Shown here one piece after another: positions 18,497-40,134 of a stretch of DNA of 42,730 bases. A program made the position numbers and the translations under genes. Under the pieces are notes generated by a model, which saw only the letters and a list, made by a program, of their open reading frames with translations, had not been told where the DNA came from and did no database searches. The stretch is from positions 1-42,730 of the forward strand of contig JBFHWZ010000002.1 in assembly GCA_041599235.1 (NCBI GenBank), in the 5' to 3' direction. The DNA comes from Candidatus Woesearchaeota archaeon (GTDB lineage Archaea; Nanobdellota; Nanobdellia; Woesearchaeales; ARS49). Within the stretch, counting starts at the first letter, position 1. The number at the start of each line of letters is the position of its first letter.

Positions 18497-18544
18497 CAGT
18501 AACTTTTTTAAACTCAGCATCGTTTGTATGGTCGGGGGAGAACA

Positions 18545-19747
18545 ATGAGAATTTCACATCCATTCTATGGCATGATTGAGTTCAATGGCGTGCATGCAGC
18601 GCTGATTGACACAACAGAACTTGCACGGCTGAAATGGGTTTCGCAATTAGGATTGGTGTTGCTGGCATTTCCTGGAGCAAAAAATTCTAGATTCACACAT
18701 TCACTTGGTGTTGCGCATATCGCAGGCAAGATTGCAGATCACTTAGAGCTGGACAAAAAAGAAAAAGATATTGTGCAATGCGCAGCATTATTGCATGACA
18801 TTGGCCACGGGCCCTTTTCGCACACACTTGAAGACTTGCGCACTGACGGCTCGGACCATGAACTGTTTGCGCACGATACTATTGTCGGCAAACGAGCATT
18901 TAATCTGCCCGGCGCAGGAGAAGTGCATAAAATTCTTGATGATTTTGATATTCCCAAAGGGATGGTTGGCAAATTAGTTGTTGGGAAATTTGAAGAAAAA
19001 CCGTATCTGCAATCAATTATCAGCGGGCCTATTGATGCAGACAAGCTTGATTACCTCATGAGCGATTCACATTACACAGGTGTCAATCTCGGAAAAATAG
19101 ATGTTGATTATGCTATCAGTGTCATGGCTATAAAGGATGACACATTGGTATTTTTGGACAAAGGCAAGCCGGTCATTCATGCAGTCCGTGCAGCGCGCAG
19201 CAACATGATGGCAGAAGTGTACATCCACCACAACCCGCGTGTTGGCGAAGCCATGCTGCACAAAGCAGTTGAGCTGGCGCTTGCAGCAGGAGAAATTCCC
19301 AACTTCCATGAATATTATGACGGAAAATTAATCACCAAGCTGGAAGAAAGCAGCAATGCGTGCACGCGCGATCTTGTGCACAGGTTGGTGTATAATTATG
19401 GCGAGCCTGCGCAACGCACAGGTCGTAATATGTATAAGATTGCGTATCAAGTGCGCACTGACAATGGCGGCAGTGCAGCGCAGCATGTACCGCGACTCAA
19501 AAAACTCGGCAAACGCTCTATCGAAGATATCTTATCAGAAGCAGTGGGGGTTCCTGAAGGCATTGTGCTGGTTGATTTCCCTGACACAAAACCGGTGTAT
19601 TCAGAAACAGTGTTTGCTGAAGCCGGCATTGAGTTCACTGATAAAGGCGGCAAATCAAATTATGCTGGCTTTGCAGTGTACTGTCCTGCAGAATACAGGG
19701 ACCGCGTGAAAGAAGCTGCGCAAGCATTTGTTGAGCGCGATGCATAA
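18545..19747 (+). CDS. HD-domain dNTP triphosphohydrolase, SAMHD1/EF1143-like
   Basis: NSRFTHSLGVAHIA, LLHDIGHGPFSH and DADKLDYLMSDSHYTG match the SAMHD1-type HD signature. GGGGGAG lies 7 nt upstream of ATG 18545. Confidence 0.8.
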   Translation: MRISHPFYGMIEFNGVHAALIDTTELARLKWVSQLGLVLLAFPGAKNSRFTHSLGVAHIAGKIADHLELDKKEKDIVQCAALLHDIGHGPFSHTLEDLRTDGSDHELFAHDTIVGKRAFNLPGAGEVHKILDDFDIPKGMVGKLVVGKFEEKPYLQSIISGPIDADKLDYLMSDSHYTGVNLGKIDVDYAISVMAIKDDTLVFLDKGKPVIHAVRAARSNMMAEVYIHHNPRVGEAMLHKAVELALAAGEIPNFHEYYDGKLITKLEESSNACTRDLVHRLVYNYGEPAQRTGRNMYKIAYQVRTDNGGSAAQHVPRLKKLGKRSIEDILSEAVGVPEGIVLVDFPDTKPVYSETVFAEAGIEFTDKGGKSNYAGFAVYCPAEYRDRVKEAAQAFVERDA

Positions 19748-33971: not shown

Positions 33972-34586
33972 TTATTCTTTTTTATTTCCGAAATACTTGT
34001 AGATTGGCTGCTGTTCTTTGACCAGTTCTTTGTTGGCATGCCTGCTGAGGACATGGAATAAGGAACTGAGCCTATTAATATAGCGTAGAATGTCAGGATT
34101 GATGTTGTAATATTTGGTCAAGCGTACAATCAAACGCTCTGCGCGCCTGCACGTGGTCCTGCATAAGTGCAAAAAGCTTGCTGAAGTTGTGCCGCCCGGC
34201 AAGATAAATGCTTTTTGTATGGGCAGGTTTTTTTCTAAATCATCAATAAGCTGCTCAAGCTCATCAACATGGTCTGTGGTGACCACGGGCAAGGGCTTGC
34301 TCATGGATTGCGCTTTTTGGCACACGCTCGCCAGCTCTGCACCTAAGGTAAAGAGATCATTCTGCACAGTGCTCAGCGTTTGCCGAGCGTGCTCATCCTC
34401 GATAAATGCCAAGGTGACGCCAATGACTGCATTGAGCTCATCAAGCGTGCCATAGGCTTCAATGCGAATATCATCCTTTCTAACACGCTCGCCACCAACA
34501 AAACTGGTTTCTCCAGCATCACCTGTTCGGGTGTATAAACTCAACTGCACCCTCCGGTAGCACCGCATACATCGCAGATGGTGCAC
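33972..34586 (-). CDS. ATP:cob(I)alamin adenosyltransferase, PduO/MMAB type
   Basis: [41 protein letters not shown] is the canonical PduO-type N-terminus. The true start is probably nearer 34544-34568: ATG 34568, GTG 34550, or TTG 34544 forming a TTGA overlap with the nrdJ stop. Confidence 0.8.
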
Positions 34587-37525
34587 ACGCCGTTCTGGCG
34601 AACCATTTTAGCGCCGCAGCTGTGGCAGGACTCATCGCCTTTATAGCCTGCTGCTTTCACATCGCCAATTTCTGCTTCAGAACCATTGCTGGCAACAGCG
34701 ACCATAGGCCGTATGTCTTCTTCAGCTTCTTCCACGACCAGGGATGGTTCAGCCTGTTCAACAACCATTGACTCGTCTATCTGTTCGTTGCTTTCCAGCA
34801 AGCGCTTGAGCTCAGGATGATCCTGGAACGTAGTATTCAATGGCTGTGACAACTTGCTGCTGTCCCTGTAAAGCGCCACTGCTTTGCTCATGTGCTTCCA
34901 GGCAAAAGAATATGCTTCTTTGATATCTTCAACAGAAGAATCCCGCGACATGTTGATTGTTTTGCTGATTGCGCCTGAGATAAAGGGCTGTACTGCAGTG
35001 ACCATCTTCAGGTGGCCGTACGGGCTAATGTAGCGCTGGCCGTGAGCACCGCACTTGTTTGCGCAATCGAACACGGGCAAGTGCTCTGCTTTAAGGTGCG
35101 GTGCGCCTTCAACAGTCATGGTGCCGCAGACATAATCATTTGCTATGCTGATGTGTTCTTCAGAAAAGCCCAGTTCCTTGAGCATGTCAAACTCAGGATT
35201 GTTTAATTGTTCGTCGCTAAAGCCTAACTGCCTACAGAAGTCAGTGCCAAGCACCCATTGCGTAAAGGCGTACTTGATTTCAGACACTGTTGGCAATTGC
35301 TTTTCTAATGCTGCAAGCTGCTCATCGCCAAAGCCTTTTGCTTTCAAAATATCGGGGTTAATGGTTTCGCAGCCTGCAAGCGTGCCGCGTCCTAAGCAAT
35401 AGGTAATGACATCATTGATTTGTTCAGTGGTATAATCCAATCGCTTCAAGGCATTAGGCACTGACTGGTTAACGATCTTCAGATACCCGCCCCCTGCAAG
35501 TTTCTTGAACTTAACCAAGGCATAATCAGGCTCAACACCGGTGGTATCACAGTCCATGACCAGCGCAATGGTTCCTGTTGGCGCAATGACGGTCACTTGC
35601 GCATTTCGGTAGCCATGCTGTTCACCCAGCTCAAGCGCTTTGTCCCATGCATGATGCGCTGCCTCCAGCAATGCTGACGGGCACGTGTTTTGATCTAATG
35701 CATCTGGCTTGATGGTCAGACCCTCATAGGAGTCGTCATTGTAGGCAGCGCGGCGATGGTTTTTGATAACGCGCAGCATATGCTGCTTGTTTGGCTCATA
35801 GCCATCAAAGGTGCCCAGTTCGCGCGCCATTTCTGCACTGGTTGCATATGATTCTCCGCACATGATTGCAGTGATGGCGCCAGCAATTGCACGGCCCTTG
35901 TCACTATCGTATGGAATGCCCATGCGCATCAGCACACTGCCAATGTTCGCATAGCCCAAGCCAAGTGTCCTGTACTTGAAGGTCTTGAGCGCAACTTCTT
36001 TGCTTGGCAGTTGCGCCATAAGAACGGAAATCTCCAAAATAAGTGTCCACAAGCGCGTTGCGTGCTTAAAGCCCTCGATGTCAAACTCGCCTGTTTCGTC
36101 ATTGAATAAGGTGCCGAGATTAATACTGGCAAGGTTGCAGGCAGTATCGTCTAAGAACATGTATTCGCTGCACGGATTGCTTGCATTGATTTTGCCATCT
36201 TCTGGGCAGGTATGCCATTCATTGATGGTGGTGTCATACTGCACACCTGGATCAGCTGATGCCCAGGCGCAGTAGCCAACTTCTTCCCAGAGCTGCCGAG
36301 CAGGGATTTCTCTCATGACCTCGCCTGTTGTCCGCGCTTTGAGCTGCCACATGGTGCCATCTTCCACAGCAGCAAAGAATGCGTTGGGAATGCGTATGCT
36401 GTTGTTGCTGTTCTGGCCGCTGACCGTGAGGTATGCCTCATTGTTGTAGTCAGTGTCAAATGTTTCCAGCAACAGTTTTTTGTTTTGTTTACCAAGATCC
36501 ATGGCTCGCACAATGTAATTGAGCGGTACATGGTCATGTGCAGCAGCGCGCACTGCATGCGCAAGCGCCCTGTTATTGGTGATATCTGCATTTTCCTGCG
36601 CCAATGCAGTTACTTTGTCAAGATGCGCCTTCATGGTCGCTGCGCCAGTGACCAAGCTTGCCACTTTTTCTTCTTCCTTGACTTTCCACCAGATAAAGGT
36701 CTGGATTTCCGGATGGTCCATATCCAAACAGACCATTTTGGCAGCTCGTCGTGTTGTGCCGCCTGACTTGATGGAGCCTGCTGAGCGGTCAAACACTTTC
36801 AGGAATGACATAAGCCCTGATGAAACGCCGCCGCCTGAGAGCCGTTCTCCTGCGCCGCGCAAGGTTGAGAAGTTTGTGCCTGTTCCTGAGCCGTACTTGA
36901 AAATGCGTGCTTCGCGTGTTAAGACATCAAAGATGCTGCCTTCGTTCAGCAAGTCATCCCTGATCTTCTGAATAAAACACGCGTGCGGCTGCGGTCTGGT
37001 GTATGCATCCTTTGAGCGCGTGAGCTCTTTGGTATCAGGATCAACATAATAATGGCCTTGCGATGGACCGGTGATGTCATAGGCATACTGCAGGCCAGTA
37101 TTGAACCATTGCGGTGAATTAGGTGCAGCCATTTGGTGCAAGAGCATATACACCACTTCATCATAAAATGCTTTTGCATCAGCATCAGAAGCAAAGTACT
37201 TGTACTGATAGCCCCAACTTGCCCAGCAGCCTGCCAAGCGATGCACAACCTGCTTTACGCTTTGCTCAGCGCCATAGGTGGTGGTGCCTTTTTCATCAGT
37301 ATAGGGAACGCCTGCTTTGCGGAAATATTTTTGTGCAAGAATGTCAGTTGCCACTTGCGACCAGAACGTTGGCACTTCAACATCAGTCATCTCAAACACA
37401 ATGCTGCCATTAGGATTGCGAATAATAGAGCTGCGCTTCTCATAGGTCACGCTTTCGTACGGGTCAGTGCCATCTTTGGTGAAATACCGCGGTATTGCTA
37501 GTCCTCTATTTTTCTCGTCTGTCAT
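34541..37525 (-). CDS. nrdJ: Adenosylcobalamin-dependent (class II) ribonucleotide reductase, long form without ATP-cone
   Basis: 994 aa. The N-terminus is [19 protein letters not shown]...[24 protein letters not shown]. Redox Cys at PHACFI, the finger loop ASNPCSEY...ACNLASINL is intact, and there is a C-terminal Cys-rich tail CHSC...CTICDVCG. Confidence 0.9.
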
Positions 37526-37528
37526 TCT

Positions 37529-39577
37529 CTACACCTCTATTTTTAGCTTTTTTTTCGACTGTTGTGAACGCGAATGAATCAACTGCTGCTGGCTGCTGCC
37601 ATCGCGATACACGTGCACACTCTTGCAGCCCAGGGCATAGGCTCTTTTGTACACGTCCTCTATTTCATGTATGGTGGCTGTGGCTGGCAGGTTGATGGTT
37701 TTACTCACGCCATTATCAGTATGCTTTTGGAATGCTGCTTGCATGGCCAGATGCTCGCCAACACTGCAGTCTTGAGCAGTTACAAACAGACTGCGCCATT
37801 TTTCAGGAATTTCCTTGTTGCTGCGCACGCTGCCGGCAAGCGCAATTTTTTTCATAAGATCTGTTGAATAAAATCCTTCTTTGCGCGAAACAGTATCAAA
37901 GAGCGGAATCAGTTCAAAGGTTTCTGCTGTTGGCCCGCGCTTCAAGTAGCTGATAGCAAAATGGGGTTCAATGCCCTGGCTGCAGCCAGCAATGATGCTG
38001 GTGATGCCGCTTGCGCAAATGGTGGTCCTGCTTGCATTGCGCACTTTCTCGTTTTTACGCACATAGGTGCTTTTTCGGTAATGCGCGAACGTGCCCCTTT
38101 TTTTGGCAAGCTCCATGCTTGCGTTTTTTGCTTCAGTGCTCACATAGCGCATCACTTTTTCAGCAAGCTTCAGCGCTTCAGGATGATTATAGGGTATGCT
38201 TATTTTTATCAGCGCATCTGCCCAGCCAATGACGCCAACGCCAATACGCCGCGAGCCCTCCATGGCTTCTTTCATCTTCGGCAATGGATACAGGCAGACA
38301 TCAATAGCATTGTCAAGCAGGTGGACAGTGGTATGCACTGAGTGCCGCAGCTTTTCCCAATTGAAATCATCTTGCGCAACATGATTTGCGAGATTGATGC
38401 TTGCAGTAAAGCAGCCCTCATAGGGCAAGAGCGGATGCTCGCCCGTAGGGATGGTTGCTTCGATCAATGAGTCATCGAAAGGATTGGTCGGTGCCTTGTT
38501 CATGTTATTCAGAAAAACCGCTGCTGGATCGCCTGTTCGCCAGGCAAGTGTTGCCAGCATGTCCAGCACGCTCCTGGCACGAAGCTTATTCACTTCCTGC
38601 TTGGTGTTGGGGTCAATCAACGGATAGTCCCGGTCTTCAGCAACTGCTTTCATGAACTCTTTGGTGAGCAGCACTGAAAGCCCAAAGCTTTGCAGGTTTT
38701 CACTTTCTTTTGCAGTGATGAAGCTGATAATATCAGGATGGTGCACGCTCAAAAATGCCAAGTTGGTACCGTGCGGGTTTATCTGGTGCAAAGCCCGATC
38801 ATACAACCGCAAGAAGGCAACAGGACCTGAGGCGCCAGCGCCTTGCGTGATTGAGCTGCCTTTTGCCCGTACTGGTGAAAAGGAAAGGCCCAGGCCAAAG
38901 CCGCGCTGCTGGTTTTTGTGCAGCAATGATGCTTGCTTGAGCGTATCAAACAGTCCTGCAATGTCATCGTGTACTGGCAGCACAAACCCATCGCTCAGCA
39001 GGGGCTGATCAGTGCCTGCATGGCGCAGTATGCTTATGCTGGGAATCATATCGCGATTAGTCATGAGGTTAGCAAACAAGTGCTCTGTTTTCTGCTGGTC
39101 GCCGCTGTATTTTTTTTCTGCCTGCGCCAGTGCTGCTGCAACGCGCTCAAACATCTGCCGTGGCGTCTCTTGCTTGTTGTTCTTGGTTTGCAGCAAGCCA
39201 TACTGCCTGAGAATCTTCAGCGCATCAAAGGAAAGCTTGAGATCATCTTCCACGCCGAGCGCTGATTTGGTTTCGCGCAGTTCCTGGCGCTTTTGCCGGT
39301 ACAAGATATATGACTTGGCAGTCTGGCTGTGCCCATGCTCAATCAGCGCTTCTTCAACACTGTCCTGCACATCTTCAACTGCAGGTATTTTATTTTTGAA
39401 CTTCTGCTCAACTTTTTTGACAACCAGCTCAGCTACAGTGATCACTTCATCAGGCCCGCCTTCACCTGTTGCTGAAAATGCCCGCTCAAGCGCATACGCT
39501 ACTTTGGTGGGGTCAAATGGCACAACGCTGCCATTACGCTTTCTGACTTTTGTTAATGTTGGGCTGTTAAGGTCCAT
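37529..39577 (-). CDS. Class II RNR paralog with N-terminal ATP-cone but substituted catalytic residues (putative pseudo-enzyme)
   Basis: ATP-cone: VRKRNGSVVPFDPTKV...VEDVQDSVEEALIE...AKSYILYRQKR. The RNR core aligns well, but SDGFVLPV replaces SACFV.PV and EATIPTGEH...GCFTASINL replaces sTNPCGE...aCNLgSINL. Confidence 0.75.
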   Translation of the reverse strand: MDLNSPTLTKVRKRNGSVVPFDPTKVAYALERAFSATGEGGPDEVITVAELVVKKVEQKFKNKIPAVEDVQDSVEEALIEHGHSQTAKSYILYRQKRQELRETKSALGVEDDLKLSFDALKILRQYGLLQTKNNKQETPRQMFERVAAALAQAEKKYSGDQQKTEHLFANLMTNRDMIPSISILRHAGTDQPLLSDGFVLPVHDDIAGLFDTLKQASLLHKNQQRGFGLGLSFSPVRAKGSSITQGAGASGPVAFLRLYDRALHQINPHGTNLAFLSVHHPDIISFITAKESENLQSFGLSVLLTKEFMKAVAEDRDYPLIDPNTKQEVNKLRARSVLDMLATLAWRTGDPAAVFLNNMNKAPTNPFDDSLIEATIPTGEHPLLPYEGCFTASINLANHVAQDDFNWEKLRHSVHTTVHLLDNAIDVCLYPLPKMKEAMEGSRRIGVGVIGWADALIKISIPYNHPEALKLAEKVMRYVSTEAKNASMELAKKRGTFAHYRKSTYVRKNEKVRNASRTTICASGITSIIAGCSQGIEPHFAISYLKRGPTAETFELIPLFDTVSRKEGFYSTDLMKKIALAGSVRSNKEIPEKWRSLFVTAQDCSVGEHLAMQAAFQKHTDNGVSKTINLPATATIHEIEDVYKRAYALGCKSVHVYRDGSSQQQLIHSRSQQSKKKLKIEV

Positions 39578-40041
39578 TTTTTCTTCTTCTTGTTGGTCTT
39601 GAGCTTTTCAACTTCTTTAGCAAACTCAGCTGCGCTCTTAAAGCCCTTATAGACTGAGGCAAAGCGCACGTACGCAACATGATCAAGCTCTTTCAGTGCT
39701 TCAACAACCATGCTGCCGATTTTCTTGCTCGGAACATCAGTGGTGTTCATGAGGCGAATCTGCGCTTCAAGATGATCAACTGTCTTGTGTATTTTGCTCA
39801 TGCTGACTGGGCGCTTTTCACAGGCTTTGAGAATGCCTGCCATCAGCTTCTGCTTCTCAAACGGCACTTTCTTGCCATCCTTCTTGAGTACTGAGATGCC
39901 CAGCACTTCAGTGCGTTCATAGGTAGTGAAGCGTTTGCTGCACTTCTCACAGGACCGCCTTCTGCGGATGCTGTCCAAGCGGGATGTCATGCGCGAATCT
40001 AGGACTCGAGTATTCATATGAAGACAATACGGGCAACGCAT
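39553..40041 (-). CDS. nrdR: Transcriptional repressor NrdR (Zn-ribbon + ATP-cone)
   Basis: MRCPYCLHMNTRVLDSR....IRRRRSCEKCSKRFTTYE, then an ATP-cone (VLKKDGKKVPFEKQKL...VAYVRFASVYK). The 3' end overlaps the next gene by 25 nt. Confidence 0.85.
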   Translation of the reverse strand: MRCPYCLHMNTRVLDSRMTSRLDSIRRRRSCEKCSKRFTTYERTEVLGISVLKKDGKKVPFEKQKLMAGILKACEKRPVSMSKIHKTVDHLEAQIRLMNTTDVPSKKIGSMVVEALKELDHVAYVRFASVYKGFKSAAEFAKEVEKLKTNKKKKKWTLTAQH

Positions 40042-40074: not shown

Positions 40075-40090
40075 ACACCACATATTGTGG
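40075..40090. promoter_or_regulatory. Candidate NrdR box (ACACCACATATTGTGG)
   Basis: 13 of 16 positions match the published NrdR-box consensus acaCwAtATaTwGtgt. The arms accaca/tgtggt form an inverted repeat. The site lies between a TATA-like box and the nrdR start. Confidence 0.4.
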
Positions 40091-40126: not shown

Positions 40127-40134
40127 TATTTAAA
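40127..40134 (-). promoter_or_regulatory. TATA-like box (tttaaata) for the nrdR-RNR operon
   Basis: The minus strand reads gtttaaatag. It would place the candidate NrdR box in the 5' leader. Confidence 0.35.

Follow-up and report, generated by a model that had tools for sequence, protein, structure and literature searches.

A gene at positions 37529-39577 (reverse strand) of the analysed window, a stretch of 42,730 nucleotides from a Candidatus Woesearchaeota archaeon (contig JBFHWZ010000002.1), encodes a 682-residue paralog of class II ribonucleotide reductase (RNR; NrdJ) that carries an ATP-cone and lacks the residues used for ribonucleotide reduction. The gene is maintained by purifying selection and is paired, in every locus with enough flanking sequence, with a gene for a second, catalytically complete NrdJ that has no ATP-cone. 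Because a half-site for effector anchoring is retained and the pairing with the cone-less NrdJ is invariant and apparently coupled, the paralog is read here, at a probability of about 0.5, as an alpha' subunit without catalytic function that senses nucleotides and partners the long NrdJ, with which it would form a heteromer. Class II RNRs are treated as single-subunit enzymes, and a selected dead cone NrdJ coupled to an active cone-less NrdJ constitutes a natural experiment that separates sensing from catalysis.

Both sequence and fold family place the paralog among the class II RNRs. Its intact open reading frame (ORF) was matched by the Pfam profiles for the ATP-cone (83.7 bits), Ribonuc_red_lgN (50.7 bits) and the RNR barrel (PF02867, 304.6 bits), and it passed the NCBIfam profile TIGR02504 (NrdJ_Z) with 485.3 bits against a cut-off of 399.95. 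These matches bear out the original prediction, made from the DNA letters alone, of an ATP-cone-bearing NrdJ-type protein. As such paralogs pass the NrdJ_Z cut-off and are annotated as active reductases, RNR counts in DPANN genomes are inflated. Membership in NCBIfam NF005401 (PRK06948, 'ribonucleotide reductase-like protein') was considered and rejected, with 196.6 bits against a cut-off of 906. The AlphaFold2 model of the paralog has a predicted local distance difference test score of 88.8, with disorder limited to the last 16 residues, and the top Foldseek matches of this model were Thermotoga maritima NrdJ entries with template modelling scores of 0.74 and 0.80. In a phmmer search of the PDB, residues 193-667 aligned to T. 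maritima NrdJ (1xje) with an E-value of 7e-77, and the register of this alignment reproduces the known numbering of C134, N320, C322, E324 and C333.

The alignment to 1xje allowed the catalytic positions to be assigned. C134, the first redox Cys, corresponds to Gly197, N320 to Ile376 and the radical Cys C322 to Thr378, while E324 is kept as Glu380 and C333 as Cys389 in the window paralog. The finger loop STNPCGE of T. maritima thus reads ATIPTGE and the strand LSACFVVPV reads LSDGFVLPV, so that the predicted replacements of the radical Cys by Thr (ACG, 38444-38446), of the Asn by Ile and of the first redox Cys by Gly (GGG, 38987-38989) were recovered by alignment and by direct reading of the codons. 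Two further segments had been called degenerate and are so: GGGVG of T. maritima has become QRGFGLG, and loop 2, SRRRGALMG in T. maritima, reads P----HGTNLAF with a gap of four residues. The loop 2 changes K267>N and Q268>P are fixed in the clade of dead paralogs described below; PMC4728125 and PMC3267527 describe what the Gln and Arg of loop 2 do. Several features go beyond the original prediction, namely the degenerate phosphate loops, the absence of a Cys tail, the lack of conservation of the second redox Cys and the four-gene operon. The apical substrate-phosphate loop, which as P-N-S-P defines reductases of ribonucleoside diphosphates (PMC8365446), has changed from PNSP to PSIS and the distal one from APTGTIS to CASGITS (motifs of these loops and of loop 2 as defined in PMC8365446 and PMC4728125), and both are variable within the clade.

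The same losses were found throughout the clade. The position of the radical Cys is Thr or Ser in 20/20 members, the Asn position of the finger loop is unconstrained (I, T, A, S or V), and the first redox position is G, S or A and never Cys. At the equivalent of T. maritima C333 a Cys is present in 16 members, Ser in 3 and Tyr in 1; apart from this variable C389, no other Cys was found in the finger loop of the clade members. In active enzymes a C-terminal Cys pair or Cys-rich domain restores the reduced state of the active site. The tail of the dead clade is devoid of Cys in 20/20 members, whereas canonical cone NrdJs end in ...GGCxxxxC. The canonical archaeal ATP-cone NrdJ, whose nearest solved structure is that of T. 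maritima NrdJ (1xje/3o0o), shares with the paralog the ATP-cone, the all-alpha N-domain and the 10-stranded barrel in the same order, but possesses the radical Cys and the Asn of the finger loop, the first redox Cys, Gln and Arg in loop 2, the phosphate loops and the Cys tail, all of which are missing from the paralog. The claim of the original prediction that the protein is catalytically dead is therefore strongly supported by sequence across all 20 members, and ribonucleotide reduction by the known mechanism would be ruled out.

A search of 5.8 billion proteins yielded 19 further clusters at 56-72% identity to the paralog, beyond which there is a sharp drop and only canonical cone NrdJs, at no more than 47% identity, were encountered (45-47% for archaeal cone NrdJs). 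Together with the window these make up the dead clade of 20 clusters at 90% identity, all without the radical Cys, with members 56-100% identical. The clade is monophyletic in 100/100 neighbour-joining bootstraps and sits on a long stem. All 20 members read A-T-x-[PQA]-[TS]-G-[ED] where canonical enzymes read S-T-N-P-C-G-E, and since the same replacements occur in all 20 clusters from independent metagenomes, neither chance nor sequencing error explains them. The clade is rare, being present in 5 of 185,579 GTDB species representatives; at 50% clustering it collapses into a single representative among 1.84 billion. Of the GTDB carriers, three co-assembly metagenome-assembled genomes (MAGs) are labelled 'uncultured Methanosarcinales' and the others Candidatus Nanoarchaeia.

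The loss of essentially all catalytic residues might be taken to indicate a decaying pseudogene or an assembly artefact, but this explanation is refuted by the conservation of the gene and retains a negligible probability. Full-length intact ORFs are present throughout the 20 clusters from independent sources. The ratio of nonsynonymous to synonymous substitutions (dN/dS), which was computed on loci L001 and L007 only as the sole pair of loci with unsaturated synonymous sites, is 0.064 for the dead paralog, 0.060 for the long NrdJ and 0.040 for PduO. Mean pairwise amino-acid identity over all pairs is 0.61 for the paralog, 0.72 for the long NrdJ, 0.62 for PduO and 0.56 for NrdR, which puts the conservation of the paralog level with PduO and above NrdR. 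Identity within the dead clade (0.64) is close to that among canonical enzymes (0.67) with a similar region-by-region pattern, and the alphaA, alphaB and loop 2 regions of the dead clade reach 0.69-0.81. Of 213 near-invariant columns, those with a conservation of 95% or more across 68 canonical cone NrdJs, the dead clade retains 133 and has lost 33, of which 15 are fixed to a new residue; the lost columns fall mainly in the active site, in loop 2 and in the phosphate loops. The conserved position in an operon of apparently translationally coupled genes also speaks against decay.

Genomic context was compared in 11 loci with enough flank, the window and 10 others. The gene order nrdR, dead nrdJ, long nrdJ, pduO was observed in 11/11 loci, with nrdR directly upstream of the paralog in 9 of them, not upstream of it in L006, and pduO coming after the long nrdJ wherever a locus reaches that far; the genes outside this cassette vary. 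The dead paralog and the long cone-less NrdJ are paired in all 11. In contrast, 0/75 canonical cone-NrdJ loci in GTDB genomes have a long NrdJ or NrdR within 10 kb, and all 75 keep C...N-x-C-x-E...C. The distance from the paralog stop to the long nrdJ ATG is 0-3 nt in 8/11 loci. A G-rich Shine-Dalgarno-like stretch, mostly exactly GGAGGTG, is found just 5' of the long nrdJ start in every locus and falls within the last sense codons of the paralog in 8/11. From this spacing the cassette genes are judged to be translationally coupled. A fusion by stop-codon readthrough was considered as well, as the two genes share a frame in 8/11 loci, but it was rejected because the stops vary between TAG, TAA and TGA and three loci are out of frame or overlapping. 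A putative NrdR-box-like palindrome precedes nrdR in the window and also in L001, L003, L004, L008, L009, L010 and L011, with a tandem pair of putative boxes 32 bp apart in L003, and the operon is predicted from these sites to be NrdR-controlled.

The original prediction had described the gene 3 nt downstream as a long, motif-intact NrdJ without ATP-cone, and this description is accurate. In the window this protein matches PF08471 (Ribonuc_red_2_N, 133 bits), PF02867 (416.5 bits) and NF005122 (1021 bits, cut-off 859) and its motifs PHACFI, SNPCSEY and ACNLASINL are intact, while no ATP-cone was detected in it by Pfam. It ends in an acidic linker followed by a C-terminal Cys-rich zinc finger. 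The low-complexity linker (window 34628-34834) has a net charge of -13, ranging from -10 to -20 across the clade, and the dead paralog has a basic tail (+3 to +7). The linker takes the place of the folded IscU-like C-terminal domain that is found in the Woesearchaeota relatives of the cassette's long NrdJ. Some cassette long NrdJs contain a LAGLIDADG intein (L001:10026-14069; L007:2212-6159), giving proteins of 1315-1347 residues, and inteins at the N-P-C finger-loop site were seen in many representatives from the profile search.

What the paralog has kept is the basis for the proposed partner role. In the ATP-cone K13, R14, Y93, R97 and R101 are invariant in the clade. They match in pattern and spacing, and by spacing only, the residues K7, R8, Y83, R87 and R91 through which the ATP-cone of PcNrdD, which has been characterised by experiment, coordinates its nucleotide (PMC11226230). 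The ATP-cone signature VxKRDG (PMC3267527) reads V-R-K-R-N-G in the window and KRDG in most of the clade. The domain is thus a regular ATP-cone by its sequence and is predicted to bind nucleotide. Three barrel residues, D204, K221 and R237, are unchanged in 20/20 members, with the register taken from the 1xje alignment. The T. maritima residues K158 and R171, in the position of K221 and R237, are said to bind effector phosphates, as reportedly described by Larsson in 2004. D204 lies seven residues past the position of the first Cys; its counterpart in E. coli is D232, a residue that binds the specificity effector at its 3'-OH (PMC4728125). In dimers of class I and II, the ribose of the effector and its phosphates are held by one chain only (PMC4728125), and the effector touches one subunit at loop 2 and the neighbouring one at loop 1 (PMC5819950).

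A mechanism can be proposed from these observations. The paralog would pair with the catalytic protomer via the conserved four-helix (alphaA/alphaB) specificity interface, and in the resulting asymmetric dimer its effector-anchoring half-site (D204, K221, R237 and loop 1) would hold a dNTP effector. The intact loop 2 of the catalytic partner could then read the effector held by the paralog and tune the active site of its own chain. The loop 2 and active site of the paralog itself would be without purpose and might for that reason have been discarded; retention of the anchoring half-site together with deletion of loop 2 and the active site is what would be expected of the silent half of such a dimer. 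The ATP-cone of the paralog would sense ATP and dATP and might thereby exert overall-activity control in trans over the cone-less enzyme, possibly through nucleotide-dependent oligomerisation or through occlusion of the partner. The suggestion of the original prediction that the protein acts in trans as an ATP/dATP-sensing partner or decoy is plausible in that it would fit the residues that were kept and lost.

Several observations weigh against this proposal. Loop 1 of the paralog is remodelled (GGGTG to QRGFGLG, a three-residue insertion), and effector binding is not assured. Cassette-specific interface changes were not evident in the long NrdJ in comparison with outgroup long NrdJs, from which it differs only by loss of the IscU-like domain and a short N-terminal deletion. 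It also has its own complete specificity site and could work as a homodimer. The C-terminal 'KKKVKxEV' of the paralog was considered as a docking peptide for the acidic linker and was rejected, as the E-V codons GAG GTG form the downstream Shine-Dalgarno sequence; where the paralog ends earlier, the same GGAGGTG sits in the spacer. The conserved '...EV' C-terminus is largely an mRNA-level feature, and only the basic stretch is left over. Membership in the operon is equally compatible with a cofactor-handling or an NrdR-linked role. Finally, the Thermoplasma acidophilum enzyme, the sole class II ATP-cone enzyme cited as studied, showed no activity regulation (PMC9669993); regulation in Pyrococcus furiosus is cited by PMC3267527.

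A cofactor-handling role would make the paralog a factor that has kept the adenosylcobalamin (AdoCbl) pocket and loads, stores or exchanges the cofactor between PduO and the active NrdJ, possibly swapping for a protomer. An analogy is offered by the diol dehydratase reactivase, a mimic of one subunit of the enzyme that it serves. The PduO adenosyltransferase closes the same coupled operon in every locus, and the betaJ motif SKTINLP (V624, S625, K626, T627, N629) is invariant, on a strand described in the literature as lining the adenosyl pocket of class II enzymes, although the motif does not settle the question of AdoCbl binding. Segment 546-600 is moreover better conserved in the dead clade (identity 0.66) than in canonical enzymes (0.57). 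A reactivase nevertheless needs ATP hydrolysis, which is not known for the ATP-cone, and in L090, L171 and L081 PduO occurs together with a cone NrdJ whose Cys residues appear intact, so that its presence is explained simply by the cofactor need of the active enzyme. Such a role is considered unlikely. About the same low odds are given to a free-standing nucleotide sensor that acts on transcription, in which the cone would bind ATP or dATP (and the remnant specificity site perhaps dNTPs) and modulate NrdR, for instance through cone-cone hetero-oligomers. In the window the genes of the paralog and of NrdR share 25 nt, the paralog directly follows nrdR in the 9 loci mentioned above, the operon is preceded by putative NrdR boxes, and NrdR works via ATP-cone-mediated oligomerisation (PMC9110341). 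A cone-only function would however leave unexplained why the whole 570-residue barrel is as conserved as the cone, and adjacency to nrdR is broken in L006 and in the Woesearchaeota operon described below, where the cone paralog comes after the long nrdJ.

It is very unlikely that the paralog is a neofunctionalised enzyme whose remodelled pocket (T378, E380, C532, C604) catalyses a non-radical nucleotide reaction. That 15 formerly invariant positions are fixed to new residues and not drifting, that E380 is retained and C604 newly invariant, and that conservation is high over the former active-site elements would all suit a new activity. Both substrate-phosphate loops and the Asn position nevertheless vary within the clade, which argues against a defined site for a nucleotide substrate; no additional cofactor motif was found in the paralog by Pfam and NCBIfam scans, and no known RNR-fold enzyme works without a radical.

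The occurrence of several NrdJ genes in one genome has been called a puzzle (PMC8365446), and a related, widespread operon with two nrdJ genes was found outside the dead clade, in Woesearchaeota-type archaea. The nearest outgroup long NrdJs are 57-65% identical to that of the cassette and are labelled Woesearchaeota or Micrarchaeota. On at least 21 contigs they occur together with members of a large family of cone NrdJs, which comprises 120 clusters. In L171 (3188-10609) the order is nrdR, long nrdJ, cone nrdJ, pduO with 4-nt spacing, and L090 and L170 (1649-10672) show variants of this arrangement. The cone paralogs of this wider operon (for example L090:12125-14176 and L171:8001-10058) resemble the dead clade in having an ATP-cone, in the same four genes being in one operon, and in lacking the Cys tail, which is present in 0/118 of them. 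They differ in that the radical Cys is kept in an invariant T-N-Q-C-G-E, that the first redox Cys, GGGTG, PNSP and loop 2 at its full length are for the most part present, and that the two nrdJ genes are in reverse order; their identity to the window protein is only about 41%. The second redox Cys has been lost in 36/120, where Ile, Ser, Ala or Met is found. As these paralogs are partly degenerate, the window clade appears as the extreme end of a graded catalytic loss. By extension, the class II RNR of Nanoarchaeia/Woesearchaeota-type DPANN archaea may natively be a hetero-oligomer of two NrdJ paralogs, in which the cone paralog would be a dedicated allosteric subunit, fully non-catalytic in the present clade, that supplies half of the specificity site and ATP/dATP on/off control in trans. 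This generalisation is tentative and regarded as possible rather than probable.

The search also brought up proteins that do not belong to the clade. P0241 (1600 residues) and P0242 (1351 residues) are the two best non-self matches of the clade profile, their high scores arising from two matched stretches, and were considered as fusions of a dead with a long NrdJ. They were rejected, being tandem NrdJ-NrdJ proteins with Cys in both finger loops. Each has two complete barrels with an intact N-x-C-G-E, after which come a TSCPD/IscU-like domain and a zinc finger, and they look like a covalent pseudo-dimer. P0351 (L091:5496-7475; C134>E, C322>S) was rejected as a distant clade member; it branches elsewhere without close relatives, no long NrdJ, NrdR or PduO was found in its neighbourhood, and it is an independent case. 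Independently altered catalytic residues were also noticed in the unrelated cone NrdJ-like proteins P0258, P0263, P0275, P0283, P0291, P0301 and P0369, some of which read TTD[TP]CG or TS[AP]C and lack the redox Cys pair. Two adjacent ATP-cone NrdJ genes are present in L078 (6148-8256, 9899-12079) and L088, from 'uncultured Methanosarcinales' MAGs; both L078 copies keep the catalytic Cys, in the finger-loop variants N-L-C and N-V-C. In a MAG labelled 'Nitrospira sp.' (L089:5602-11826), a 1275-residue product with duplicated Ribonuc_red_2_N and barrel matches adjoins a 554-residue barrel and TSCPD fragment; this may reflect an artefact of assembly or of gene calling, or be a further tandem NrdJ.

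Pseudo-subunits of RNRs and regulation by ATP-cones placed in trans are already known, and what would be new here is their appearance in class II. In yeast, R2 and the inactive R4 make up a beta-beta' dimer (PMC3267527). Rnr4 is, like the paralog, a catalytically defective paralog of an RNR subunit, and it is kept because it heterodimerises with active Rnr2, but it belongs to the radical-generating, ferritin-like subunits of class I, has no ATP-cone and is eukaryotic; its heterodimer has been demonstrated experimentally, while for the paralog a heterodimer is predicted. ATP-cones also occur on NrdB, typically when the nrdB gene is upstream of the catalytic gene (PMC9669993). In Leeuwenhoekiella blandensis and Facklamia ignava such NrdBs likewise place activity sensing off a cone-less catalytic subunit (PMC5794259), but they are of class I, essential for catalysis and act by dATP-driven NrdB tetramerisation. 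The betaherpesvirus R1 homologs M45/vIRA and UL45 are large-subunit homologs that have lost reductase activity and been repurposed; in contrast to the paralog they are viral, derived from class I, inhibit necroptosis through the RIP homotypic interaction motif, a function that has nothing to do with dNTP synthesis, and share no operon with an active paralog. The class II RNR NrdJa/NrdJb of Pseudomonas aeruginosa depends on two polypeptides from adjacent genes (PMC4520616; PMC5704485), but there one enzyme is split into a barrel and a Cys-rich domain, and here two full-length barrels are present, one of them dead. None of these analogues pairs a dead class II barrel of full length with an active one. 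No description of an inactive, pseudo- or RNR-like NrdJ protein turned up in full-text literature searches, so that the arrangement, believed undescribed in the original prediction, is new within the searchable literature.

The role of class II ATP-cones is unclear, and possible selection for a 'cryptic function' has been discussed (PMC9669993); the present pair makes this function directly testable with two recombinant proteins. If the partner model is true, RNR regulation would gain a new architecture in the form of a class II alpha-alpha' heterodimer, and a prokaryotic RNR pseudoenzyme would be at hand. The pair would also provide a tractable system of two proteins and AdoCbl for studying how an ATP-cone switches off an enzyme that needs no radical-generating second subunit. 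If the wider proposal of a native hetero-oligomer is true, the enzyme would be the first class II RNR to combine two subunits of which one is a regulatory pseudo-subunit, and it would offer a concrete answer to the question of the cryptic function. The features of the operon in the window are collected in Table 1.

Table 1. Coordinates of the RNR operon, its upstream signals and the residues discussed (window numbering).
Feature	Position	Strand	Remarks
Archaeal TATA-like TTTAAATA	40127-40134		about 40 nt further upstream of the NrdR box
NrdR-box-like palindrome CCACAATATGTGGTGT	40075..40090	-	49 nt 5' of nrdR ATG; bacterial-type, putative
nrdR (Zn-ribbon and ATP-cone repressor)	39553..40041	-	TIGR00244 185.5 bits, cut-off 124.65; Pfam Zn_ribbon_NrdR and ATP-cone; first gene of the operon
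nrdJ', ATP-cone NrdJ paralog, predicted catalytically dead, 682 aa	37529..39577	-	intact ORF
ATP-cone, residues 10-99	39281..39550	-	PF03477 83.7 bits, positions 2-88 of 88
GGG, Gly197	38987..38989	-	replaces first redox Cys (Tm C134); codon read on raw sequence
Helix alphaA and loop 1 region with D204, K221, R237	38867..38968	-	Tm D141, K158, R171
Loop 2 remnant QINP----HGTN	38762..38785	-	4-residue deletion, Gln to Pro, Arg deleted
Finger-loop tip A-T-I-P-T-G-E, residues 374-380	38438..38458	-	Asn to Ile, radical Cys to Thr, Glu kept
ATC, Ile376	38450-38452	-	codon read directly
ACG, Thr378	38444-38446	-	codon read directly
TGC, Cys389	38411-38413	-	equivalent of Tm C333; codon read directly
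Shine-Dalgarno-like GAGGTG	37532..37537	-	within the final two sense codons (E-V) of the paralog, 6 nt (TAG + AGA) 5' of long nrdJ ATG
Long cone-less NrdJ, 994 aa, catalytically complete	34541..37525	-	start 3 nt past paralog stop
PduO-type ATP:cob(I)alamin adenosyltransferase, 204-aa ORF	33972..34586	-	PF01923 196.4 bits, TIGR00636 187 bits; last gene of the operon

The palindrome CCACAATATGTGGTGT is presumably an NrdR box, by the consensus of such sites. The true start of pduO is probably a TTG at 34544, which overlaps the nrdJ stop. The remainder of the window is ordinary archaeal chromosome, with genes for aIF2-alpha, Gins51, PAC2, Trm1, an XPD-type helicase, enolase and PRPP synthetase, and an Rfam scan of the window gave 0 matches. 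The same 43-kb window as the RNR operon also encodes, at 18524-19747 on the forward strand, a protein with HD and HD_assoc_2 domains, an architecture typical of dGTPase/SAMHD1-like dNTP triphosphohydrolases.

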